A stretch of 13,960 nucleotides of DNA from Candidatus Vampirococcus lugosii (GCF_018420025.1 NZ_JAEDAM010000022.1:1-13960), one strand, 5' to 3'. Shown: positions 1 through 13,936, numbered from the stretch's first letter. The notes: generated from the letters alone by a model not told the origin. Made by a program: numbers and translations.

Positions 1-1
1 T

Positions 2-1990
2 AGAGAGGTAAATATTGAATTATCAAAAATAATAAAATCACATAGAATAAGTTCAATAACTCAAACTTGAGCTAATTTGATATATTCTTTTAGATCAGAT
101 GTTAATACAGGAAGTTTTGATTTATTTGCTGATTCATATTTTGAAAATTTAACTTGAAATATTCAAAATTTTGATATAAATAATTGAACTTGAAGTGCTA
201 ATATTACTGGTTTGCTTGGTAAGACAAGATATTATTATAAATTAGTATTAGATGATGATTATTTGACAGGAACTTTTAGAACTGCTAATCTTGTTTCTCC
301 TGGTGATACAGAATCGACTTGAGTTACTTTATTGACTTGATCTAAAGTTGGAAGTGGTTCAAAACTAAAATTATCTAATAATATTGTAATTAAATCTGAT
401 TTAGATGATTCTAATGTTTTTTCTTGAAGTTTATCTTTATCTTGAGATATTGAAGTTGAATGATGAGATTGGGATTGATCTATAATACCTCCTAGTAAGA
501 TAGATGAAAGTGAAATTGATTGAGCTTGATTAACTTGAAATAATGTATTTATGAAATTATGAGCTGAAAATTGAATTACTCTTAAATCTGATGAAAATAA
601 TCCTTTTAAAGTGTCTGTTGAATTAGAAGATTGAGAAGTATGAAAAGAATATGATATATATAGATCAAAAGATTGAATGGGATGGTGAGAACTTATTGCT
701 TCTTGTGTATTAAATAATAACAAAGTATGTAATTTTGAAACAGAAACCTTTTCATATTTTGTATTTAATTCTCAAGAAGATGAAGAAGTAGATTTAGAAA
801 AATATGAAGTAGAATTTAATCTAGATCCTACAGATTTAGATTTAGAAGTTAAAAATTTAAGTTGAGATATACAAGTTGGAAGTTGAAATATTTATAATTT
901 AGAAAATTGAAGTTATACATATATAGCAAGTGCAATATGATATGAAAGTGAAGAATGATGATTTGTTATAAATGGAACATGAAAAATTATTAATATTGAG
1001 TTAGATATTACTATTCGTAGATGATGATGAGGTTGAACAAATATATATTGGAAACCTTATGAAAATGATGAATCTGAAGAAGATGATAACGAAGATAATT
1101 CTGAAGAAGATGATAACGAAGATGAATCTGAAGAAAATGATAACGAAGATGATTCTGAAGAAAATGATGAATTTGAAGAATCTAAAGATGATGAAAACAT
1201 TATTGAAGATGAAAATATTGTTGAAGATGAAAACAATATTTATAATGATATAGAATATACTATTGAAAGTATAATAATACATAATTCAAAAACATTAATA
1301 AATATACCAGTTTTTGATTCTGTTGATGTTCAAAATAGAGTTAATTTATTAAATAAATTAATTGTAAATCAAATAAAAGATAAAAGAATATCAGGTCGTG
1401 ATTTATCCAAGTTTATAAATTCTTATAATGATTTATTAATAATAATTAAAATTATTAATGATTTATCTGAGCATGTTAATGATACTAAAAAGCTTAAAGA
1501 TATTTGAAGAATAAAAATTGAAGATATATTATCAATTTTAAATGATTATGATAAAATTATTTCTTCAGATAATTTGGTAGATGATGAATTTGAATTAGCT
1601 TTATCTTTTATGAATAGATATGGTTTGACAAATTATACTAGTGTTGATGATTTTAGACCAGATGATGAATTAACATTACAAGAATTTATTAAATTCTTTG
1701 TATTATTTGGAACTAATGTGGTGTGATTGGAACAAGTATGACTTGATATGGAAAATGCTAATTCTTCAAAATTAGTTAATAGATCAGATGTATTTGTTGT
1801 TTTAGTTAAAGTTATTTTGTGAAGAAAATTGGATGAATCAGTTTATCCAAATTGGTATAATTATTTTGAGTTTGTTAGATATCTATGACTTACTAAAGAA
1901 GAAGATGTTTGGGCTCAAGATAGACCTATTACAAGATATGAATTAGCATTAATTCTTTATAGATCTTGGTTGTCAAATTGATTATTTTAA
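2..1990 (+). CDS. C-terminal ~662 aa of a large secreted/cell-surface protein (5' end lies outside the window). It is Gly/Asp/Glu-rich, has an acidic tandem-repeat linker, and ends in two SLH-like (S-layer-homology-like) repeats.
   Basis: The frame starting at position 2 stays open to TAA 1988-1990 only if TGA is sense; there are dozens of in-frame TGA and no TAA/TAG. The tail segments 'ALSFMNRYGLTNYTSVDDFRPDDELTLQEFIKFF' and 'DRPITRYELALILYRSW' resemble SLH repeats. The opposite-strand track ORFs 259..723 and 1001..1282 are antisense artefacts. Confidence 0.7.
1067..1174 (+). repeat. In-frame 27-bp tandem repeat, about 4 units, encoding an acidic D/E/N/S block (DESEEDDNE-like). Degenerate 18-bp EDEN-type repeats continue to about 1240.
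   Basis: Read directly: gatgaatctgaagaagatgataacgaa (1067-1093), gataattctgaagaagatgataacgaa (1094-1120), gatgaatctgaagaaaatgataacgaa (1121-1147), gatgattctgaagaaaatgatgaattt (1148-1174). Confidence 0.9.
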
Positions 1991-2010
1991 AATTATTATA
2001 TATTATTCTT

Positions 2011-2048
2011 AATCTCTGGATTTGTATTATTACTTTTCCAGAGATTTT
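2011..2048 (+). terminator. Candidate intrinsic terminator hairpin downstream of the surface-protein gene.
   Basis: A 10-bp perfect stem pairs aatctctgga (2011-2020) with tccagagatt (2037-2046) around a 16-nt loop, followed by a short T run. It sits 21 nt after the TAA stop. Confidence 0.4.
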
Positions 2049-2061
2049 GGTAGTCCAAAAA

Positions 2062-2089
2062 TTGACAAATTGTATGTTTTGTATATAAT
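2062..2089 (+). promoter_or_regulatory. Sigma70-type promoter with a consensus -35 and -10.
   Basis: TTGACA (2062-2067), a 16-nt spacer, then TATAAT (2084-2089). It lies about 77 nt upstream of the ATG at 2166, in an intergenic region directly after the hairpin. Confidence 0.5.
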
Positions 2090-2165
2090 TTTGATTACCT
2101 GGTGAAGGTGCTATGATATTTAGTTTATATATTAAACTATATTTATATTTTAATTGATAAAAAAT

Positions 2166-3026
2166 ATGTCTGATACACTTGAAAAAAAAGAAGAAATTGT
2201 TGCCCCCGAATATAATATAAATGATTTTTTGGATAGGAATAAAGATATAATATATTCTGATTTTTGAATAGAAGCAGAAAATTTAGAAGCAAAAAAAATA
2301 ACAGAAGATGAATATATTATTTATAATAATATTAACGAAAGCCCTATATTAATATTAAATCCTGATTTAAAAGAAATGTTATTTGTAAATATTTGAAGTG
2401 ATATAGACAAAAGACGATATAAATATTCAGCATTGATATTATGATATGATATTGAATATAATAATGATTGAAGTTTTTCATTATACAATAATGAATTTAA
2501 AGAAAAAGAATGAGAAAATAATACTATTAAGTCAAAAAAAACTTGAGAAATAGATGTTTTTTCAGAAGAATTTATTAAAGCTTGGGATAAAATGTATTTT
2601 GTTAAAATTAGATGACATGTAGATTCTGAAGTAGATTTTAGTTATGATGATTTTGATGTATTTAATAATATTTGAATGCTTAGGCCAAGAGATGTAATAA
2701 GATATAAAGATATAATTCCTGAAGATGAATACAAAAATCAAATGAAATTAGCAGTAGATAATTTGATTGATAATATAACTGATATTAGATATTCATATTT
2801 GGAAGATGAAGTTACAATTGAGGAATTAGATGTATATCTTAATTGATGAACTTTAGTTTATCCAGAATGGTCATCATGATGATATGAAGTTGAAATTCCG
2901 AAATGAATTATATCACAAGAATTATATGATTTGTGAGTTGATATTATAAAAGAGTTAGAAAAAATGAACGAAGAAAAAAATGAAATAAAAGAAGATATAC
3001 AGGCAAGGTTGGATGATTTAATTTAA
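2166..3026 (+). CDS. Hypothetical cytoplasmic protein of 286 aa with an acidic, coiled-coil-like C-terminus. No family recognised.
   Basis: The frame from ATG 2166 to TAA 3024-3026 is open with about 14 in-frame TGA and no TAA/TAG. I saw no signal peptide or TM segment. Composition and codon use match the neighbouring genes. Confidence 0.7.
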
Positions 3027-3437
3027 GAATGTTATACTAAAAATATTTTTAAATATAAACAAAATAGTTATAGAAAAAATATATCATTATTATGATAACT
3101 TTAATTTTAATTCTATTTTTGAACCTGACTTAAACAAAATTATTATATAATATAATTTAGATTATAAATTAATTTTAGTGTAATTATTTATGTAAAAAAA
3201 TAAGATTAAGAGATTTAGTATATTAATTTACTTTTCTCTTGTTTTTTAATAAAAAAATAATTGTTTTATAGTTATATATTGAAACAAATAATTTTTTTGT
3301 TAAAAACTAATATAAAATTTATTACATTTATAATGTATATAATTAATTATATTAAATAAAATATACATTTTTGGTTGAAAAAAATAAAAAAATAATTAAT
3401 AATGTATTTATTTAATAATTAAATTAAAATTAATATT

Positions 3438-3656
3438 ATGAGATGATTGATGATAGCTTTTATGTTGATTTCATGAGTTGTTTGTATATTTTCAATATTA
3501 CTTATGTCACCTAAAGGTTGACTTTGAAGTTGAATATCTTGAGCAGGTTGAGAAGATTTTGGTAGCAAAAAAAGTATAGAATGATGACTTAAAAAATCTG
3601 TTATTATTAGTTCTATAATATTTTTTTCTATTGCTCTATTTTTGCCATATATTTAA
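3438..3656 (+). CDS. secG: Preprotein translocase subunit SecG (72 aa).
   Basis: The translation is MRGLMIAFMLISGVVCIFSILLMSPKGGLGSGISGAGGEDFGSKKSIEGGLKKSVIISSIIFFSIALFLPYI. It has two TM helices flanking a Gly-rich loop, the classic SecG layout. Nine of its 12 Gly codons are TGA. Confidence 0.7.
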
Positions 3657-3680
3657 ATCTATATAGATAAACTAGATTTT

Positions 3681-4937
3681 ATGAAAATAACACATTGGAA
3701 GTTCTTTAAGTATTTTTATTCATGAATACTTGTTCTTTGGATATTAATAACTGTGCATGTTGTATATGCATTTGTTTATGATATTTCTGAACAAGTGCCT
3801 GTTAAATGATGAACATTTGTACATTGAGTATTTTCTCAAGCTACATATTTGCCATATTTAAGTAATACTTGAGAAGATAAATTTTTTCAGTCTCTTTTGT
3901 TTAATTGATGTTTATCGCCATATGTTGATAATACAAATATAGAATTTGAAGAAGATTTATGTAATATTAAAACTTCAAATTTTAGAGTTTTTGAAATTAG
4001 TGTTAAAGAATGAAAAAAATGGAATGATTGAACTCCAATTACAAATGATGATATATTTTTTACTTATAATGAACTTATAAAAAATAATATACGAAATATA
4101 TCTAGTTTAAATAGTTTTTCAAATTTGGAAATACAAGATCAATGAGATTTTATAAAAATTATATTTCCAAATTGAAGTAAAGATAATGAAATATTTCTTT
4201 CTAATTTTATACTTCCAAGACATTTACTTAAATGAAAAGATGTAACTTATTATGTAGAGAATTATTCAAATAATCCGATTTGAAGTAATTGTGCAACATT
4301 TAGACAATCTACTAGTGATAAAGATAGTATTATTTTTGATATGAATAATTGTGATGAAAGTTTTGTTATGAATTATCAAGTAAAAAATTTTGATAGTTTT
4401 GAGGATTTTCAAAAGTACCAAAAAAATTCTGATTTGATAGATCTTTATATTTGAAATGATTTGTTAAACTGATTTAGAAATAATAAAGTAATACTTAATA
4501 ATTTTGTATCAATATTTTTTAATGTTGAAGCAGATAATGTATCATCTAATATTAGAAGAACTATTTCACAAATAATTTATAATAATATATATAAATGAGA
4601 TTATAAAAAATATTTTATTAAAGATAAGTTTTTGTTTGATACAGATATACAATGATGAGCACCGAGAACAGTTTTTGAAGAATTAGAAAAAGAAATAACA
4701 AGCCCAAAAGAAGTAGAAGTTGAATTAGAAAATATGCCAAATGAATTAAATTTGGAAAATCTTACTTGAACTTTTTATTTGGATAGTATAGATGATTTGT
4801 TTAATATATCTTTTGATTTATGACAAAATTTTGATTCAGTATCAGTCCAACATAATGATTGACAAGCTTATGTATTGCAATGATATGATCAGTCAAGTAT
4901 TGCAAGGTATAATATATCTGAAAGATTTCAAATATAA
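3681..4937 (+). CDS. ABC-transporter substrate-binding protein, family 5 (Opp/Dpp-like), N-terminal portion (418 aa) with an N-terminal TM/signal anchor.
   Basis: The segment 'KGGTFVHGVFSQATYLPYLSNTGEDKFFQSLLFNGCLSPY...FRVFEISVKEGKKWNDGTPITNDDIFFTYNELI' matches the N-terminal SBP_bac_5 pattern (GGT..., 'W.DG.p.T..Dv.fT'). There are about 21 in-frame TGA. The frame ends at TAA 4935-4937. Confidence 0.7.
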
Positions 4938-4960
4938 AAATTTGAAAAAATGATTATATA

Positions 4961-5623
4961 TTGAGATGAAAAATTAATTGAGAAGAAAAAGAATTGTATA
5001 ATATTTCCTTATACTATAAAGAAAAACCACTTGAACAAATACCTGCAACAAGTAATTCTTTAAATTATAATGTATTATATTTTAAAAATGAATTAAATGA
5101 ATATGTAGTTTCCAAAATGAAAGAAATATTTGAATCTGAATGAATATTAGAATTTTTTACATTCAAATGAATTGATTCATCTGAAGAATTTCAATGACAA
5201 GTACAATCTCAAAATTATGATATTGTAATAAGATGAATTAATATGTGATTAAAAAAAGATATATCAAATATATTTATGACAAGTGACCCTCAAATAAATC
5301 CATCATGATATATAAATAATGATATGGCTTCAAATATAAATCAATATTTTATAAATGATTGAAAAACAAAAAATGATTTATTAAGTTCTATTCATTCAAA
5401 ATATTCTAATGAAGTTCCTTTTATAATACTTGGTAAAGTTTATGGAAATTTGAATATTAAGAAGAGTTCATGAATTTCTTTTCCTGAAAGACTTTATGAT
5501 TATAGATTTATTATAGATTATATTGACAATATAATAGTTTCCAAAAGACCTAAAATTGATTGAAAAAAGATATTAGATAATAAAAAATTTATTAATTTTA
5601 TAAGAAAAAATATATCAGAATAA
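4961..5623 (+). CDS. C-terminal portion of the same family-5 substrate-binding protein, in the -1 frame relative to 3681..4937. This looks like a split gene or frameshift pseudogene.
   Basis: The frame is open from 4913 to TAA 5621-5623. It has no in-frame ATG before 5117, so TTG 4961 is the first canonical start. 'YDIVIRGINMGLKKDISNIFMTSDPQINPSGYINNDM' resembles the C-terminal lobe of SBP_bac_5. It overlaps the upstream frame by 25 nt (4913-4937). Confidence 0.55.
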
Positions 5624-5657
5624 GTGTTTTTATTAAATAAAAATTTAAAAAATATAT

Positions 5658-6731
5658 ATGTGGGATAAAATTAAAAATATAGAAAATAGATATGATAATA
5701 TAAAAGAACAACTCTGTCAAAGTGATATTTTTTCTGATAATGAAAAAGCTATAAAATTAAATAGAGAACTTTCCAAATTGCAGTGAACATATGATTTGTA
5801 TCAAGAATATAAAAAAATATATAAATCATTAAATGAATCTAAACAATTACTTGAAATAGAAACCGATGAAGATATGTTACAGATGATAAAAGAAGAAATA
5901 AATACTTGTAAAGAAAGTATTTTAGATTTGGAAGAAAAGTTAAAAATAGAAATGTTACCTAAAGATCCCAATGATGATAAAAATGTATTTATGGAAATAA
6001 GACCAGCAGCTGGTTGAGATGAATCATGACTTTTTGCTATGGAACTTATGAGAATGTATTTGAGATATTGTGAAATTATTTGATGGAAAAGTGAAATAAT
6101 TGAAGAGCAAGTTAGTGATATAGGTTGACTTAAATGATGTATATTAAAAATTAAATGAGATAGTGTTTTTTCAAAGTTAAAATTTGAAAGTTGAGTTCAT
6201 AGAGTACAAAGAATTCCAAATACTGAAAGTAATTGAAGAGTTCATACTAGTACCGTGACGGTTAGTATAATGCCTGAAGTAGATGATTTGCAAGTAAATT
6301 TTAATAAAAAAGATGTTGATATTACAACATATGCAGCTAGTTCTGCCTGATGACAAAATGCTAATAAAAATCAAACATGAGTAAGAGTTATACATAGACC
6401 AACTTGATTAATTGTAACTATTTGAGAAGGTAAATCACAATTACAAAATAAAGAAAGAGCTTTTGATGTTTTGAAATCTAGACTTTTTGAAATACAACAA
6501 AAAGAACATAATGAAAAATTGCAAGAAGAAAAGTCTAATCAAATATGAACTTGAGATAGATCAGAAAAAATAAGAACTTATAATTTTCCACAAGATAGAC
6601 TTACTGATCATCGTATAAAAAAATCTTGGTCAAATATAACATGAATTTTATCATGAGAAATAGAAGATATTGTTCAAGATTTGATTTTGGAAAATCAATC
6701 AAAATTATTAAGTAAACAAAGTGAATCTTAA
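5658..6731 (+). CDS. prfA: Peptide chain release factor 1 (357 aa).
   Basis: The frame is open with about 19 in-frame TGA. Hallmark motifs present: 'EIRPAAGGDESGLFA', '[26 protein letters not shown]' (PxT-type tripeptide P-N-T), '[23 protein letters not shown]' (GGQ), and '[24 protein letters not shown]'. Track ORF 5796..6017 is just an internal fragment. Confidence 0.95.
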
Positions 6732-6773
6732 AAACTAAATTATATTTTAAATATATTAAAAAATAAAAAATAA

Positions 6774-7142
6774 ATGGAGAATAATTTTAATAAGAAAAAT
6801 TGATTAAATAAAAGTGATTTATCATATTCTAATACTTTAGATTCTCAAATTATTGAAATATTGGATTCTTATAATGATTTGATGTCAAAAATAAATAATT
6901 CTAATATATTTAAGCTTTTTAAAAAATCTACTTTATATGATCCAGATCTTTATGAAGAAACTATTTTACATGTTTTGAATTGATGAAAAGTATTTGTAAT
7001 GATAGTTAGTGAAATATGATGAAATTTTGAATCTTATAATATAGAATGATTGACAGTTTTTGATTTATTGGAAAATTGAGATGAATATTTACAAGATAAT
7101 GATAGTAATAATTCTGTAAGTGTTTTTATCTCAAAAGCTTAA
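6774..7142 (+). CDS. Hypothetical small protein (122 aa), paralogous to the next gene.
   Basis: The frame from ATG 6774 to TAA 7140-7142 is open with 7 in-frame TGA. 'EETILHVLNGGKVFVMIVSE' aligns by eye with 'EEILLGLLQGEKIYIYVYVL' of 7170..7565. Confidence 0.6.
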
Positions 7143-7169
7143 TTTATTTAAAAATAAATTTAAATTTTT

Positions 7170-7565
7170 ATGAATGAAAAAAATAATTATATATATGATC
7201 TAATATGAATAAATTACAAAAATACAGTTTCAAGTGCATCTTTTTCAAAACAAATAAATGATTTAATATTATATACAGAAAATTTTTTTGATAAGTTTTT
7301 CTATTCTTATTTTTTGACAAATATGTATTATTCTTTTAATGATGTTGAAAGAATAGAAGAAATACTTCTTTGACTTCTTCAATGAGAAAAAATTTATATA
7401 TATGTTTATGTTTTGGGAGATAATGATTGTGTAATAGATAAATCTTTTATACCAGTAAATTCGGTTGATACTTTATTTGAGATAGCAAATGAATTTGATT
7501 CTGTTTATCAAGATATTAATTGTTCTTGTGATTTAAGAATTAAAGCATTTTTACCAAAACTTTAA
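7170..7565 (+). CDS. Hypothetical small protein (131 aa), paralogous to the previous gene.
   Basis: The frame from ATG 7170 to TAA 7563-7565 is open with 3 in-frame TGA. It shares a central motif and a similar C-terminal layout with 6774..7142. Confidence 0.6.
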
Positions 7566-7680
7566 TAAAGAGTATATTAAAGTATATTTTATTTAAAATA
7601 AATTTTGTTCTTGATTTTTATATGTTAATATATATATAAAATATATTTAACTCGTTTTTAATAAAAATTTTAATAAATAA

Positions 7681-9810
7681 ATGGAGATATATAAAATACA
7701 AAAAAGAAATTGAGAAATAGTTGATTTTGATAAAATTAAAATTAATCAAGCTATAATAAAAGCTATTAAATCAGTTTGATGAACTGATTTTTCAAAAGTA
7801 GATTTTTATACTCAAGAAGTAATTAATCTAATATTAGAAAATAATTTAGATGGTATTGTTGGTGTGGAGCAAATACAAGATTGTGTTGAAGAAATATTAA
7901 TTAAAAATTGACATAATGAAACAGCAAAAAGTTATATTTTGTATCGTAATCAAAGAAATGAAAGTAGAATTGATAAAAATGTAGTAGTACAAGTAGAAAA
8001 AACTATGAAAGAATATTTAGATAGATCTGACTGGAGAGTAAATGCAAATGCAAATTCTTGATATAGTTTATGATGATTAATATTAAATATTTCTGGTAAA
8101 GTTGTTGCAAATTATTGGCTTTCTCATATATATCCAAAATATATTTGAAACTTACATAGAAACGGTGATATACATATACATGATTTAGATATGTTTGGTT
8201 GATATTGTGCTTGATGGAGTTTAAGACAACTTTTGGAAGAAGGATTTAATTGACTTTCTGATAGAGTGCAATCCGAACCTCCGAAAAATTTGCAATCTAC
8301 AGTAAATCAAATGATAAATTTTTTGTGAACTTTACAAAATGAACGAGCTTGAGCACAAGCATTTTCAAGTTTTGATACTTATTTGGCTCCTTTTGTTCAT
8401 AAATATAAAGAAGAATTAAAAGAAAACTTGATTGAATTATGAGTTAAATTTGAAACAAAAGAAAAAGAAAAAAATTATTTATATAATATGACTTATAAAT
8501 ATGTTTATCAACAATTTCAAAATTTTATTTTTTGATTAAATGTTCCCTCTAGATGGTGAACACAAACACCGTTTACAAATATAACATTAGATTGGAAATG
8601 TCCTGATGATTTAAAAGATAAAGCTCTTTATTTATGATGAATACAAAATTGAGAATATAAGAAAAAATATTGAGAATTAGAAGAAGAAATGAGACTTATA
8701 AATAGGGCATTAATTGAAGTTTATACGAAATGAGATGCGAATTGAAATGTATTTACTTTCCCTATTCCTACATATAATTTGACTGAAGATTTTCCACGAA
8801 ATGATCCGTTAGTTGAAGATTTGTTTGAAATGACAGCTAAATATTGAATTCCATATTTCCAAAATTTTATTGGTTCTCAATACAAAATAATAAAAGATGA
8901 AAATTGAAAAAATAAAAAAGTAAAAAATGAGGATGCATATTCCCCATGAGCTGTAAGAAGTATGTGCTGTAGACTTCAATTAGATTTGAAACAATTAGAA
9001 AAAAGATGAAATTGACTTTTTGGTTCTGCTGAAATGACTTGAAGTATTTGAGTAATTACAATTAATATGGCTAGAATATGATATAATTATAAATGAGATA
9101 TTGATTGATTTAAGAATAGAATTAAATTTTTGATGGATTGAGCTAAATCATCATTAGAAATTAAAAGAAAAGAATTATCTAAATGGTTAGATAAATGATT
9201 ATATCCATATACAAAAAGATATTTACATTCTTTTAGAAATCATTTTTCTACGATATGAATTAATTGAATTAATGAAGCTATATTAAATTTTACAGATTGA
9301 AAAGAAGATATTACAAGCAATTTTTGAATAAAGTTCGCTGTTGAAATTATGGATTTTATGAGAGATATTTTGAAAGAATATCAAGAAGAGACTTGAAATT
9401 TATATAATTTAGAGGCGACACCTGCAGAATGAACTACATACAGATTTGCAAAAGAAGATAAAAAGCAAATATCAGATATTATTCAAGCTGGAACACAAGA
9501 TGCACCTTATTATACTAATTCAAGTCAAATACCTGTTGCTTATACAGATGACCCATTTGAAGCATTAGATTTACAAAATGAATTGCAATGTAAATATACT
9601 TGATGAACAGTATTGCATATGTATATGTGAGAAAGAATTTCAAGTGCTCAAGCTTGTAAAAGTTTTGTTAAAACAATAGTAAGTAATTATCAATTACCAT
9701 ATATAACAATTAGTCCAACTTTTTCAATATGTCCTATACATTGATACATTGCTGGAGAACACGAATACTGCCCAAAGTGTGATGAAGAAAAATGATATAA
9801 GAATGTATAA
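7681..9810 (+). CDS. nrdD: Anaerobic (class III) ribonucleoside-triphosphate reductase NrdD (709 aa). It has an ATP-cone N-terminus and appears truncated before the glycyl-radical motif.
   Basis: Motifs present: 'MEIYKIQKRNGEIVDFDKIKINQAI' (ATP-cone-like), 'GDIHIHDLDMFGGYCAGWSL', 'NERAGAQAFSSFDTYLAPFV', 'RSMCCRLQLD', 'GSIGVITINMARIG', 'NLEATPAEGTTYRFAKED', 'APYYTNSSQIP', 'GGTVLHMYMGE', and the Zn-ribbon 'SICPIHGYIAGEHEYCPKC'. There are about 45 in-frame TGA. The protein ends 'DEEKGYKNV' followed by TAA TAG (9808-9813). Confidence 0.9.
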
Positions 9811-9898
9811 TAGCAATTTTAAAATATTATTAAATAACTTTAAATAATGTTGACTTTTTTAAAAAAATCTTTAAAACAAAAATCCTACCTTCTAAAAA

Positions 9899-9904
9899 AA
9901 GGAG
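9899..9904 (+). promoter_or_regulatory. Canonical Shine-Dalgarno (AAGGAG) for the lipoprotein gene.
   Basis: aaggag lies 9 nt upstream of ATG 9914. I found no comparable SD in front of the TGA-rich genes in this window. Confidence 0.7.
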
Positions 9905-9913
9905 ACTATTAAT

Positions 9914-10354
9914 ATGAGAATTTTAACCGTATTTTTGTTTGTTTTTTTTCTTACGGCATGTCAAACTACATCCGTTAGAAATCAAACTTCTGGTGCATTA
10001 CTTGGTGGTGTGCTTGGTGGTATGCTTGGTGCACAAGCTAAAAGCTATCAAACTGCTGCTGTGATTGGTGGTACTTTAATAGGTGCTAGTGTCGGAAGTA
10101 ATATAGGTGCTAGGATGGATTCTGTTGACAAAATGATGACAAAAAAAGCATTGGAAGTCAATAGAACTGGACAAAGCACAGAATGGAAAAATCCTGACAC
10201 TAATAATCAATATAGAGTAACACCAACTCGCACTTTTTCTTCAAGTACTTCTGTTTGTAGAGAATATGCGACGGAAGTCTTTATTAGAGGAAGACAAGAA
10301 ATGCTTTACGGAAAAGCTTGTCGAGAACCTGATGGAACTTGGCAAGTACAATAA
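9914..10354 (+). CDS. Lipoprotein of the glycine-zipper / 17-kDa-surface-antigen type (146 aa).
   Basis: It is intact in both the standard code and code 25. The signal peptide carries a lipobox (MRILTVFLFVFFL-TAC). A Gly-zipper follows: 'GALLGGVLGGMLGA...IGGTLIGASVGSNIGA'. The C-terminus 'STEWKNPDTNNQYRVTPTRTF...CREYATEV...YGKACREPDGTWQV' resembles proteobacterial surface-antigen lipoproteins. All 15 Gly codons are GGN, and GC is visibly higher than in the flanks. Confidence 0.85.
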   Translation: MRILTVFLFVFFLTACQTTSVRNQTSGALLGGVLGGMLGAQAKSYQTAAVIGGTLIGASVGSNIGARMDSVDKMMTKKALEVNRTGQSTEWKNPDTNNQYRVTPTRTFSSSTSVCREYATEVFIRGRQEMLYGKACREPDGTWQVQ

Positions 10355-10376
10355 TAATTAAATATTTGATTTTTTT

Positions 10377-10412
10377 AGGAGTAGTATTTCTACTCCTTTT
10401 TTTGTTTTTTTA
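10377..10412 (+). terminator. Rho-independent terminator of the lipoprotein gene.
   Basis: The stem pairs aggagtag (10377-10384) with ctactcct (10390-10397) around the loop tattt. A T7-G-T8 run follows. It sits 23 nt after the stop. Confidence 0.85.
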
Positions 10413-10437
10413 ACAAATTGAGTGGATAAAGTTTAAA

Positions 10438-10462
10438 ACAAGGATTTGCGAGAAAATAAAAA
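10438..10462. repeat. Copy 1 of a perfect 25-bp direct repeat, acaaggatttgcgagaaaataaaaa.
   Basis: An identical 25-mer recurs at 13912-13936. The flanks diverge immediately, apart from a loosely similar 'ttta(a/g)a' just upstream. Confidence 0.9.
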
Positions 10463-10920
10463 AATCTAAATTGTAAGAAAAAGTATCGTTGTTAAAAATA
10501 TCAATAATAGAACTTTTCAATAACCTTATAAGGAGTTCTATTTTCTAGTTATTGTTATGTCAATTTACAAATTTTTTTCTAAAAAACAAACTCTTGTTTT
10601 TTTGCTCTTTTGATTATATTCTATATCGTAGGCATTATACATTGAATTATAGTTTGTTATTAAATAAATTACATTAATTTATAGAAATTATTTTTAATAA
10701 CCATATACAATACAATCTTACATATACTTCATTTGATGTATCATAAAATTTTTATTTACTTGAATTATAATAAACATTATATATGTAATATAAAAAGACT
10801 TTACAAAAGAATTTTCTTAAAAAAATAAGAAATAGTTTTTTTAGATTTTTAAATAAAGTTAAATTTTTATAAAAAATACCATATAATTTTTCATAGGTCT
10901 CTAAAGAAAAAAGAAATGGA

Positions 10921-12099
10921 CTAATTCTTATATTCAAGATTTATTAATTCCAGAAAACTAAAAATTACAGATAATTCTAATAAAAATTTTTCTAAACTAA
11001 CTTCAGGTTCTTCTTTCAAAGATATTTCAAGATTATCATTACTATTTTTTAAATAAAGATAAATTTCATCTCAAATAAAAGCAATGTTTACATTGCTTGT
11101 GCTAGTTTTTTGTTCTAATTCCAGTAATTGACTTTGCATTTTAGGAGTTAAAATACTTCAAACTTCAATTTCATCTTCACAAAATACATCATATGTCTTA
11201 TTAAATATTTTATCATTTAATTGTATTTTTTTTTCTTTAGGTAAATTTTTTCTTCTATAAAATAACTCATATAAAAAAATTCAGACTAAATATAAAATTA
11301 TTAAAATTAACATAAATCCTCAAAATCATATTTGTGATATAATTGGAAAAATTACACCCATAATTCATTGAAAAATTTTTATAATTAGAATTATTATAAA
11401 TAATACAATTGCAAATCAATTAAAATATAGTCTAGCTTTATTTGCAATAGCTTTAAAAGGAGATATAGATTTAAGAATCCTTACTCTCTTTTTTATTTTT
11501 CTTTCAATATTTTTTATTCTACTATACATCAAAATTCCATAATCTGTAATATATTCACTTCTTGTTTCTCTACCTTCGCTATCAGTTGACTCTGTAACTC
11601 TAGATAAACAAAAATCTACTCACATCACAGATAAATCATTTTTCTTATAAAAAAAAGAATCTTCACTTCTTCTTACTGTATTATAGCTTGGATCTAATAA
11701 ACCAGACTTGTTTGAATATTCATAAAAGCATATTTTAAATAAATCATCTTTTATAGAGTATTGAAATCAATAAAAAGCTTTTTCTAAAACTTTTCAGTAG
11801 ACCCCTTCTTTTATCTTTTTAGAAAAATTCTTTTTTATAGCTGACCCTATAATTAACCATATTATCAAAGAACAAAGTCATAAAAAGACAACTATATGAA
11901 TTATTTCAATTAGTTCTTGATCATAGTTTTTTAAAAATACTTGATAAAATAAAAAGATTAATAGAATTATAAAAATAACATTGTTTATCATTAAGTAATT
12001 ATTATACTTCTTTTGAAGATTTATTACTTCTCTGTAATCTTTAGATACTTTGAATTCATTTATAACTTTATTTATTTCTGATTGTGTAAAAATATTCAT
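10921..12099 (-). CDS. DUF3137-like membrane protein (392 aa) with N-terminal and central TM helices.
   Basis: On the minus strand the frame is open from ATG (12099) to TAG (10923-10921) with 11 in-frame TGA. Track ORF 11878..12099 is only its first 73 codons. 'SEDSFFYKKNDLSVMGVDFCLSRVTESTDSEGRETRSEYITDYGILMYS' and the C-terminal 'CEDEIEVGSILTPKMQSQLLELEQ...VNIAFIGDEIYLYL' resemble my recollection of DUF3137 proteins. Confidence 0.65.
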
Positions 12100-12719: not shown

Positions 12720-13025
12720 ATGGCAATAATATTAGCTTACATTTTAATGGTTTTAATTGGAGGAATTGTATTGTGGATTATTGCAAAACTATTTTCAGGC
12801 TATCCTCCAAATATTATTCAATGTTTTGTTGGTGCTGGTATAGCTGAGTTTGTTAGTTTATTTGACATACCATTTATTCCTTTTATAGTATTATTTATTG
12901 TTCTTATCAAAATTGGCAGATTTGAAGCTGTGCCAGCTTTTGTTGCAACAATGCTATTGAATAATGAAGTTGTTCTTATTTGGAATAGTTGTAGTAACAC
13001 TTACTGATATATTCGGCTAAGTTAA
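12720..13025 (+). CDS. Small hydrophobic membrane protein. It is 95 aa in the standard code and 101 aa if the TGA at 13005 is read as Gly.
   Basis: The sequence is MAIILAYILMVLIGGIVLWIIAKLF...IPFIPFIVLFIVLIKIG..., with 2-3 TM helices. It has no internal TGA and all 6 Gly are GGN. An alternative frame near 12975-13020 encodes another helix-like segment (LFLFGIVVVTLTDIFG), so a frameshift is possible. No family recognised. Confidence 0.45.
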
Positions 13026-13138: not shown

Positions 13139-13933
13139 ATAAAAATATTTATATTCAGTAAATATTACCCAAATTGTTATGTTGAAAGTGTTTTTTTACT
13201 AGATTATCAAAAAATTTACAATCAAGGTTTTCGTATGATAATCTTTGATATTGATAATACTTTAGCCCATCATGGAGAAAATCCAAGTGAAGAAATAGAA
13301 AACCTTTTTCAAGAAATATATAAAATCGGCTTAAAAACTCTACTTTTTTCTGATAACAGTACTGAAAGAATTAATCAATTTTGTAAAAATATTGATTCTT
13401 CATTTGTCGCTGAAGCAAATAAACCTAATATATATAAATTAATTAATGCACTTGAAAATTTTAAATTACTCAAAGAGCAAAGTATTTATATTAGTGATCA
13501 AATATTTAGAGATATTTGTATGACGAATCAAGCATGAATTAAAAGTATCTTGGTTAAATATTTACGCAAACCAAATCAAAAAAAAAGGTATTCATCGTCG
13601 TTTGGAAAATTTTATTTTATGGTTTTATTCAAAAAGTAAGAAGTACCAAAGCTTGAAAAAGATTTTGAAAGATGATCAAAATAATATTAGAAAAAGAAAA
13701 CTTTTTTGTGAAATTCATCCTATTTTTTAAAAATTTCTGTAATAAAAGAACAATTGAAATATAATTTAAAAGATCTTTATAAAAGAAATAAATTTGCAAA
13801 AAATATATCCAATGTAAAACTTGATAATTTGATTTCACAATACTCTATAAAAATAATCAAGAAAGACAAAGCTCATCTTTGTAGAACAAAATTTCTAAAT
13901 CCTTGATTTAGACAAGGATTTGCGAGAAAATAA
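13139..13933 (+). pseudogene. YqeG-type HAD-IIIA phosphatase fused or adjacent to the N-terminus of a VanW-like protein. It is frameshifted and truncated.
   Basis: Frame A reads 'YYPNCYVESVFLLDYQKIYNQGFRMIIFDIDNTLAHHGENPSEE...FSDNSTERINQF...ANKPN...ISDQIFRDICMTNQAGIKSILVK', the YqeG pattern, and it has no ATG at the true N-terminus. A +1 shift at the A9 run (13578-13586) gives 'GIHRRLENFILWFY...RKRKLFCEIHPIF'. A second shift at the T6 run (13723-13728) gives 'YFLKISVIKEQLKYNLKDLYKRNKFAKNISNVKLDNLISQYS', resembling the clostridial VanW-family N-terminus. Homology ends near 13900. Confidence 0.6.
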
Positions 13934-13936
13934 AAA
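13912..13936. repeat. Copy 2 of the perfect 25-bp direct repeat. Its first 9 nt form the 3' arm of a local hairpin.
   Basis: acaaggatttgcgagaaaataaaaa is identical to 10438-10462. aaatccttg (13897-13905) is the exact reverse complement of caaggattt (13913-13921), with a 7-nt loop between them. Confidence 0.9.

Follow-up and report, generated by a model that had tools for sequence, protein, structure and literature searches.

The genetic code of Candidate Division SR1 and Gracilibacteria, NCBI translation table 25, was reportedly described by Campbell and colleagues and by Rinke and colleagues in 2013. [quoted passage not shown] Table 4, as used in Mycoplasmatales, Entomoplasmatales and several insect endosymbionts, also reads UGA as sense, but as tryptophan. 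[quoted passage not shown] Candidatus Vampirococcus lugosii is a predatory, epibiotic CPR bacterium with 38 reported tRNA genes, for which UGA was stated to be glycine and genes were called by Prodigal with table 25 (Moreira et al. 2021, PMC8080830). The glycine meaning of UGA in V. lugosii is thus already known, being both published and used in the GenBank annotation. The new part is that CGA appears, from codon alignments, to encode Trp rather than Arg in this organism, which PMC8629427 does not mention (0 occurrences).

The window, that is, the whole stretch of DNA analysed here, is a complete GenBank contig of V. lugosii (Absconditabacteria/SR1), the 13,960-bp, chromosomal 'contig 40'. In our main reading, to which we assign a probability of roughly 0.88, it is written in the Absconditabacteria code, with UGA as glycine, UAA and UAG as stops and CGA most likely as tryptophan, and it carries an imported gene at 9914-10354. 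With table 25 it shares UGA-encoded glycine, UAA and UAG as the sole stops, RF1, low GC content and CPR origin, and GenBank annotates the same contig with that table; it differs in that its two informative CGA codons fall on invariant Trp columns, and in that TGA is the dominant glycine codon (79% of the total). It resembles the code of Shulgina and Eddy 2021 in having CGA on Trp columns with arginine kept on AGA and CGT, in the rarity of CGN codons at low GC, and in the interchange of TGG, CGA and CGG among NrdD relatives. Its CGG, in contrast, is a single, uninformative codon, and its GC content (0.225) is below that of the reassigned clades in PMC8629427 (0.26-0.38).

Under table 11, no ORF of the window exceeds 154 aa counted from a start codon, and the 12 that reach 60 aa or more account for 20% of the whole contig and 12% of positions 1-9810. 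With TGA read as sense, the coding density of 1-9810 is 91.5%, in a dense plus-strand block whose longest ORF has 709 codons (Table 1), and ORFs of at least 100 codons amount to 4796 codons, compared with a mean of 107 and a maximum of 352 in 100 shuffles. Freeing TAG in place of TGA gave no comparable ORF gain in the window. All 180 in-frame TGA codons are compatible with glycine and in-frame TAA or TAG codons number 0; the 13 genes terminate in TAA (12) or TAG (1), never in TGA. ORFs stopped at TGA under table 11 run on to TAA and at that length are identical to GenBank proteins, and ten of the translations with TGA as glycine are exactly identical to V. lugosii proteins (range MBS8121912-MBS8121923). 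These results bear out a first-pass annotation that had seen only fragments under the standard code, had found a dense gene block free of in-frame TAA and TAG once TGA was sense, and had placed the DNA in a Gracilibacteria/Absconditabacteria-type CPR lineage. The nearest NrdD relatives, wherever their source is named, are likewise Absconditabacteria or Gracilibacteria. The table 11 track is fragmentary because TGA became the main glycine codon, and without the UGA-glycine call the contig appears nearly gene-free. Recoding had been placed at 1-9810, which holds for that stretch but not as a limit. The DUF3137 gene has 11 in-frame TGA codons and the genes at 12720-13025 and 13235-13639 one each, so recoding extends over the whole contig.

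Table 1. Genes of the V. lugosii contig with TGA read as glycine.
Feature	Coordinates	Strand	Details
Large surface-type protein, 3' part, truncated by contig start	2..1990	+	37 in-frame TGA, 14 GGN
Hypothetical protein, 286 aa	2166..3026	+	TGA 14/14 Gly codons; exact match MBS8121916.1
secG, 72 aa	3438..3656	+	Pfam SecG E=1.5e-9; exact match MBS8121917.1
Oligopeptide-type solute-binding protein, two frames (3681-4937, 4913-5623)	3681..5623	+	weak SBP_bac_5; 34 TGA vs 2 GGN
prfA (RF1), 357 aa	5658..6731	+	Pfam PCRF 1.1e-69, RF-1 1.9e-32; exact match MBS8121920.1
Two small hypothetical genes	6774-7142, 7170-7565	+	10 TGA vs 1 GGN; exact matches MBS8121921.1, MBS8121922.1
nrdD large subunit, ATP-cone + class III RNR barrel, 709 aa	7681..9810	+	Pfam NRDD 3.6e-168; 100% identical to MBS8121923.1; 45 TGA vs 10 GGN
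17-kDa-antigen / glycine-zipper lipoprotein	9914..10354	+	0 TGA/15 Gly codons; GC 0.376
DUF3137 membrane protein, 392 aa	10921..12099	-	11 in-frame TGA; TAG stop; exact match MBS8121912.1
Small membrane protein, 101 aa	12720..13025	+	1 TGA; exact match MBS8121914.1
HAD phosphatase, family IIIA, 134 aa	13235..13639	+	1 TGA (NQA-g-IKS); exact match MBS8121915.1

The amino acid encoded by TGA was read from alignment columns, chiefly those of RF1 and NrdD. A Pfam search confirmed SecG, PCRF with RF-1 and ATP-cone with NRDD, and against the PDB the prfA product matched RF1 at 8.7e-91 and its best RF2 at 1e-47, consistent with an intact RF1. In PDB alignments with X placed at every TGA, 11-13 of the 18 TGA columns of RF1 fell on glycine in three standard-code RF1s, against a glycine background of 6-7%, and none fell on tryptophan. 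Across 33 NrdD orthologues without in-frame TGA, 82% of the cells in the 45 NrdD TGA columns were GGN and none was TGG, with glycine in the majority in 38 of the 45. Among 42 database homologues of NrdD translated with TGA as W, these columns read G (that is, GGN) in 67.5% of cells and W (their own TGA) in 26%, whereas true TGG columns read W in 86% and never G. For SecG, comparison with the Thermus thermophilus protein placed 4 of 9 TGA codons on glycine and the others in the Gly-rich loop or TM1. TGA also stood at each of the glycines named in the earlier motif list, in RF1 (PAAG-g-DE, FES-g-VHRVQR, SA-gg-Q, RPT-g-L and g-T-g-DRS), in NrdD (YCA-g-W, ERA-g-AQAFS, T-g-SI-g-V and T-gg-TVLH) and in the solute-binding protein (VK-gg-T). 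TGA in the window is glycine, neither tryptophan nor stop, as had been proposed.

TGA usage is also heavy within single genes: it accounts for 9 of 12 glycine codons in secG, as counted before, and for 18 of 21 in prfA, where the earlier count of 19 of 22 was slightly off. Over 40 loci, TGA share tracked GC content closely (Spearman rho -0.905); in that comparison the window lies at a share of 0.82 and a GC of 0.225, with relatives reaching 0.77. The window's share is the extreme end of this trend and no outlier. The predominance of TGA among glycine codons is most likely due to AT pressure in a genome of ~22% GC. Literature on the clade, rather than the window itself, points to a tRNA-Gly with anticodon UCA as the probable decoder and suggests that RF2 was lost and RF1, encoded here by prfA, was kept. 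No tRNA genes were found in the window.

The evidence on CGA comes from two informative codons in one gene, nrdD. Codon 222 (8344..8346, plus strand) occupies a TGG-Trp column in 33 of 33 orthologues without in-frame TGA, and codon 373 (8797..8799, plus strand) a column that is Trp in 33 of 33 standard-code orthologues; both thus sit on invariant Trp columns, of which there are eight. The same two columns interchange TGG, CGA and CGG in 15 recoded relatives, Absconditicoccus praedator included, and orthologues without TGA show no such interchange at Trp columns (0/264). NrdD has 17 conserved Arg columns, at which the window carries AGA (14), CGT (1), AAT (1) or a gap (1), and window-wide there are 98 AGA codons versus 5 CGA and 1 CGG. 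The remaining native CGA codons (one at 4092, the other, the single CGA of the 286-aa hypothetical gene, at 2415-2417) and the sole CGG (13014-13016) are at unalignable or variable positions. This CGG lies in the unalignable C-terminal tail of the 101-aa membrane protein, where the sole TGA of the gene also occurs, 6 codons ahead of the TAA stop; relatives place CGG on Trp columns. Taken at the level of codon columns, CGA, probably together with CGG, most likely specifies Trp rather than Arg in the native genes of the window, and would be read by a Trp-type tRNA with anticodon UCG, as published clade work suggests. 'Genetic code 25' is therefore right for UGA and apparently wrong as a full code. 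The companion claim that TGG continues to encode Trp holds only in part, because CGA appears to be reassigned to Trp as well.

Three other accounts of the contig were weighed against this reading. A code 4 genome, in which UGA would be Trp, has in its favour a GC content of 22% and the behaviour of automated callers, which choose table 4 for the same DNA; Logan's automated translations (P0035, P0157) accordingly give TGA as W, turning each TGA-encoded glycine into tryptophan. However, the NrdD and RF1 column tests refute it. The universal RF1 GGQ, written TGA-TGA-CAA with TGA for both glycines, would turn into WWQ, and the proteins would then contain 5.6% Trp and 1.4% Gly, compared with 6.3% Gly and 0.64% Trp with TGA as glycine, so the probability of code 4 is negligible. 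Equally negligible is a standard-code origin in which the TGA codons mark a run of pseudogenes, sequencing or assembly errors, or a whole-genome-amplification chimera. The genome does come from MDA/MALBAC-amplified micromanipulated consortia (PMC8080830), the solute-binding protein gene carries a frameshift, and a Logan contig (L001) leaves the window path at 10461. But the in-frame TGA codons are all Gly-compatible, no TAA or TAG interrupts genes of up to 709 codons, and orthologues from dozens of independent assemblies have the same in-frame pattern. Logan contigs from two sequencing runs also reproduce 7578-10467, including the nrdD-lipoprotein junction, at 99.8-100% identity. As regards recoding this account is refuted, and the join at 10461 is the one remaining assembly question.

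Plain table 25, with UGA alone reassigned and the nrdD CGA codons being real Trp-to-Arg substitutions, is a more serious competitor, although we consider it improbable. GenBank and the source paper chose this translation and treat CGA as Arg, the informative CGA codons number two, and a CGA in the lipoprotein gene falls on a conserved Arg column. Against this, the chance of both nrdD codons landing on Trp columns conserved in 33 of 33 orthologues is ~1e-4, CGA occurs at 0 of the 17 Arg columns, the relatives exchange codons at exactly these two columns, the reassignment has been reported for Absconditabacteria (PMC8629427), and separate lines of evidence mark the lipoprotein gene as foreign. 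Judged from these alignments, table 25 is probably incomplete for V. lugosii, its standard meaning for all other codons failing at CGA. What the analysis adds is small and corrective; table 25 is probably still wrong at V. lugosii CGA codons. If CGA is indeed Trp, the CGA-containing genes of V. lugosii have all been deposited with Arg at positions that are Trp in the cell.

The lipoprotein gene at 9914-10354 stands apart from its neighbours. It is in the standard code, with no TGA among its glycine codons, and has a Shine-Dalgarno sequence (AAAGGAG) directly upstream, a terminator directly downstream (10377-10397) and homologues of proteobacterial type. It corresponds to the HGT gene VAMP_40_134, 'surface antigen', in Supplementary Data 1 of PMC8080830, and is horizontally acquired. 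The HAD phosphatase gene likewise appears in the supplementary list of that paper as an HGT gene (VAMP_40_177). The lipoprotein gene was probably imported recently from a standard-code donor, whose codon semantics and expression signals it would have retained. Its CGA (10322-10324) on an Arg column fits this foreign origin, and also fits residual or ambiguous decoding as Arg. If CGA is Trp, the imported lipoprotein would be made with Trp at Arg137, and the contig would capture a code incompatibility directly. The combination of no TGA, CGA on an Arg column and a Shine-Dalgarno sequence may serve as a marker for recent acquisitions in recoded genomes.

At the position of the lipoprotein gene, related loci carry the rest of a class III ribonucleotide reductase that is split between ORFs. 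NrdD here terminates 8 residues past the CPKC zinc motif, with the NRDD profile matched to position 531 of 562, and lacks a glycyl-radical motif (RVxGY). In 79 of 83 related loci this motif is in a separate ORF just downstream of nrdD, followed by nrdG in the two annotated loci. A tblastn search of the window with code 25 and queries from two relatives matched neither the small glycyl-radical ORF nor NrdG. Thus, in contrast to a complete class III enzyme, in which the glycyl-radical motif and NrdG are encoded with nrdD, the V. lugosii window has neither, and the lipoprotein gene occupies their place. If this holds, an orphan NrdD large subunit may remain in a predator believed to subsist on the DNA of its hosts, an observation that bears on the capacity of V. 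lugosii to make deoxyribonucleotides. We give even odds to the broadest statement, namely that V. lugosii is doubly recoded (UGA as Gly and CGA as Trp) in a way that is unrecorded in its paper and GenBank entry, that its import is code-incompatible and that its NrdD may be an orphan.

Two of the tabulated genes have further features. The large surface-type protein was without a match in the Pfam search; it contains an acidic SEEDDNED-type repeat (1040-1219), and its C-terminal third resembles a protein at an A. praedator locus (L003) that bears faint SLH matches. The solute-binding protein is split between frames by an A run at 4930-4932 that lacks one base present in another assembly, and the Logan-assembled protein (P0157) is unbroken at 647 aa, reading ...ERFQNIKI...

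Under the standard code (table 11), only 12 ORFs reached 60 aa, the longest running 154 aa from a start codon; their coverage was 20% across the window and 12% within positions 1–9810. With TAA and TAG as the only stops, it resolved into a head-to-tail block on the plus strand, with ORFs of up to 709 codons and a coding density of 91.5% across 1–9810, as expected from the first-pass annotation, which had described fragments under table 11 and a dense gene block with TGA as sense. Codons in ORFs of at least 100 codons numbered 4796; 100 shuffles averaged 107 and never exceeded 352. With TAG rather than TGA freed there was no comparable gain in ORFs, and freeing TAA was uninformative because shuffles of such AT-rich sequence also yield long ORFs. 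All 13 genes ended in TAA or TAG, and Pfam recognised SecG, PCRF and RF-1, and ATP-cone and NRDD, together with a weak match to SBP_bac_5. An open frame of 310 codons antisense to prfA, which appears when TGA is sense, is without homologues and represents a shadow ORF, not a gene.

Coordinates of sequence features in the window and in related loci
Feature	Sequence	Position	Strand	Detail
nrdD CGA codons	window	8344–8346, 8797–8799		both on columns that are TGG-Trp in 33/33 orthologues without in-frame TGA
Regions downstream of nrdD, compared	window	9770–10920		
	L003 (Absconditicoccus praedator)	8213–9218		
	L004 (related nrdD locus)	8243–10006		
Small glycyl-radical ORF	L003	8213–8455		
Open frame antisense to prfA	window	5645–6577	−	
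Frame change in solute-binding protein	window	4929–4937		A run 4930–4932
Lipoprotein cassette	window	9811–10400		
Lipoprotein gene	window	9914–10354		
Single CGA of lipoprotein gene	window	10322–10324		
Terminator of lipoprotein gene	window	10377–10397		intrinsic
DUF3137 gene	window	10921–12099	−	11 in-frame TGA
Small membrane protein gene	window	12720–13025		one in-frame TGA
Further recoded gene	window	13235–13639		one in-frame TGA
Direct repeat ACAAGGATTTGCGAGAAAATAAAAA	window	10433–10462, 13907–13936		25 nt exact (30 nt, 93%)
Repeat in Logan contig	L001	1803–1829		
Intergenic gap upstream of secG	window	3027–3437		411 nt, GC 10%
Tandem repeats	window	1040–1219		27-nt period

The residue encoded by TGA was assessed with three tests, none reliant on table-25 translations. 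An X was placed at each TGA of RF1 and the product aligned to the RF1 structures of S. mutans, T. thermophilus and E. coli; 11–13 of the 18 TGA columns fell on Gly, against a background of 6–7%, and none on Trp. Both universal glycines of the GGQ motif were among them. For NrdD, homologues translated with table 25 would have been circular, so we used TGA-free orthologues and homologues translated with TGA as Trp. The orthologue set comprised 80 loci from GTDB representative genomes and two more relatives, and 33 of its members lacked in-frame TGA. Across these 33, the window's 45 NrdD TGA columns were occupied by GGN-encoded Gly in 82% of cells (background 7.1%) and by TGG in 0%, with Gly the majority residue at 38 of the 45. 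The 42 database homologues already translated with TGA as Trp, in which any Gly must come from GGN, had Gly in 67.5% and Trp (their own TGA) in 26% of cells at the window's TGA columns; at true TGG columns they had Trp in 86% and never Gly. Distant NrdD structures in the PDB gave a weak signal (9/37 and 4/29 TGA columns on Gly) and were replaced by closer standard-code CPR orthologues.

Composition pointed the same way: with TGA as Gly the products contain 6.3% Gly and 0.64% Trp, and with TGA as Trp they contain 5.6% Trp and 1.4% Gly. Code 4, in which UGA is Trp, is rejected, as is a pseudogene or sequence-error reading of the region. TGA encodes glycine in the window genes, as first proposed. 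The motifs quoted for this reading were all present as described, and the TGA share of secG Gly codons was exactly 9/12; the prfA count, given as 19/22, was 18/21 on recounting. Two automated Logan proteins from this DNA, P0035 (NrdD, 7681–9810) and P0157 (solute-binding protein, 3681–5623), do read TGA as Trp and contain 7% Trp. Because of that translation, P0035 appears as a 94% identical homologue; it is the same DNA (99.8%) and not a second lineage.

GC is ~22% along the whole window. NrdD (7681–9810, TGA as Gly) was 100% identical to a 709-aa database entry, ribonucleoside triphosphate reductase of Candidatus Vampirococcus lugosii, and all ten TGA=Gly translations looked up by exact sequence were GenBank/RefSeq V. 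lugosii proteins (MBS8121912, -14, -15, -16, -17, -18, -20, -21, -22 and -23). Moreira et al. 2021 (PMC8080830) report that V. lugosii reads UGA as Gly and called its genes using Prodigal with table 25, and the gene names in that paper, Vamp_40_40 (oligopeptide transporter), VAMP_40_134 (surface antigen) and VAMP_40_177 (HAD phosphatase), place the window on its 'contig 40'. UGA=Gly is therefore correct for V. lugosii but not novel, being in print and already applied in GenBank. Of use beyond the known code are a probable CGA=Trp correction for this organism, the standard-code signature of an imported gene and a possibly orphaned NrdD.

Table 25 is probably incomplete for V. lugosii. GenBank has Arg at both CGA positions of NrdD (MBS8121923.1), yet both codons fall among the 8 invariant Trp columns of the 709 in the protein, a placement with a chance probability of ~1e-4. 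At the 17 conserved Arg columns of NrdD, the window uses AGA 14 times, CGT once and CGA never. Moreover, TGG, CGA and CGG are swapped at the same eight columns in fifteen recoded relatives, A. praedator among them, and in 0 of 264 cells of the orthologues without TGA. The CGA codons of the solute-binding protein and of the 2166–3026 gene lie at variable or family-less positions and were left out of the test. The pattern agrees with the CGA/CGG-to-Trp reassignment inferred for Absconditabacteria by Shulgina and Eddy 2021 (PMC8629427), a study that does not mention Vampirococcus; our literature search found no report tying Vampirococcus, CGA and tryptophan together. As the window holds only two informative codons, both in nrdD, we place the probability that CGA is read as Trp in V. 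lugosii at 0.85–0.9. The first-pass note was right that TGG continues to encode Trp, but this is probably only part of the picture.

One gene does not share the recoding. The product of the ORF that directly follows nrdD is a lipoprotein in which a glycine zipper and a 17-kDa-antigen domain were recognised, and its homologues (≤51% identity) belong, where named, to Gammaproteobacteria, Alphaproteobacteria or Rickettsiales. The gene's Gly codons are 15 GGN and no TGA (probability ~9e-11 at the window's TGA share), its GC is 0.376 compared with 0.19–0.29 in the other window genes, and it has the window's only Shine-Dalgarno sequence, AAAGGAG, as well as its own terminator. At the column of its single CGA, 30 of 33 homologues have Arg. 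On these grounds it is a foreign gene in the standard code; should V. lugosii read CGA as Trp, its version of the protein would carry R137W. The nrdD–lipoprotein junction was considered as a possible chimera of amplification or assembly. This is rejected because Logan contigs of two runs, SRR13241708 and SRR13241709, share the junction and match the window at 8660–10461 (100% identity) and 7578–10467 (99.8%). The gene, VAMP_40_134, was already listed as horizontally acquired (PMC8080830), and the evidence from codon semantics is a new addition to that listing.

In the window NrdD, the match to the Pfam NRDD profile stops at position 531 of 562, and the RVxGY glycyl-radical motif is absent. Standard-code relatives are likewise ~705 aa long, so decay cannot be read from the short tail by itself. 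A separate ORF of 80–86 aa carrying CEVYTRVMGYYRP begins 34–40 nt after nrdD in A. praedator and SR1 RAAC1, and nrdG comes next. Across 83 loci, the motif (TRVMGY) was found in a separate ORF of 50–97 aa within 1.5 kb downstream of nrdD in 79, with nrdG next in the two loci that have gene annotation, and was fused to nrdD in one. It was not found at L060, which reaches the contig end, at L021, which has a poorly aligned ORF, or in the 4.1 kb downstream of nrdD in the window. Judged by sequence, the NrdD family of the window's relatives is a predicted split class III reductase, and the missing fused domain is a family trait rather than a truncation. The ribonucleotide reductase literature we searched described no split class III reductase and mentioned only the split class II NrdJa/NrdJb. 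In the small ORF of A. praedator, the radical glycine (RVM-g-YY) is itself a TGA codon.

A tblastn search of the whole window with code 25 found no trace of the small glycyl-radical ORF or nrdG. No V. lugosii protein appeared among the top 120 matches listed for an A. praedator NrdG query, which hints that NrdG may be lacking; the V. lugosii NrdD is possibly orphaned. Synteny around nrdD was not conserved with relatives; the exception was prfA, close to nrdD at two loci.

Two frames encode the solute-binding protein, because the A run at the frame change lacks one base relative to the Logan read assembly, in which the protein (P0157) is intact at 647 aa. The missing base reflects either polymorphism among strains or an assembly error. 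A direct repeat brackets the last 3.5 kb, its second copy lying 24 nt from the contig end and adjoining two hairpins. Past the first copy, the Logan contig L001 departs from the window path at 10461, which leaves the join there not fully secure. No Rfam family passed its gathering threshold in the window and ARAGORN detected no tRNA, and the AT-rich gap upstream of secG has neither ORF nor Rfam match. Within the partial surface protein, tandem repeats encode an acidic SEEDDNED-type tract.

With the foreign gene left out, TGA accounts for 180 of 229 Gly codons (79%), and several window genes have no GGN at all. Among 39 recoded NrdD orthologues this share ranges from 7% to 77% and, with the window included, falls as locus GC rises (Spearman rho −0.905). 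At 0.82 and a GC of 0.225, the window's nrdD is the end of a continuum and not an outlier; such a share would be expected where AT mutation pressure acts on a set of synonymous codons with TGA among them. Recoding had been assigned to 1–9810. It is present there, and it continues beyond 9810 in three genes that must be read through TGA for their products to match GenBank proteins, with the lipoprotein gene standard. The sole TGA of the small membrane protein lies six codons before its TAA stop, in an extension that also contains the window's only CGG; this TGA may once have terminated a gene imported in the standard code and would now be translated as Gly.
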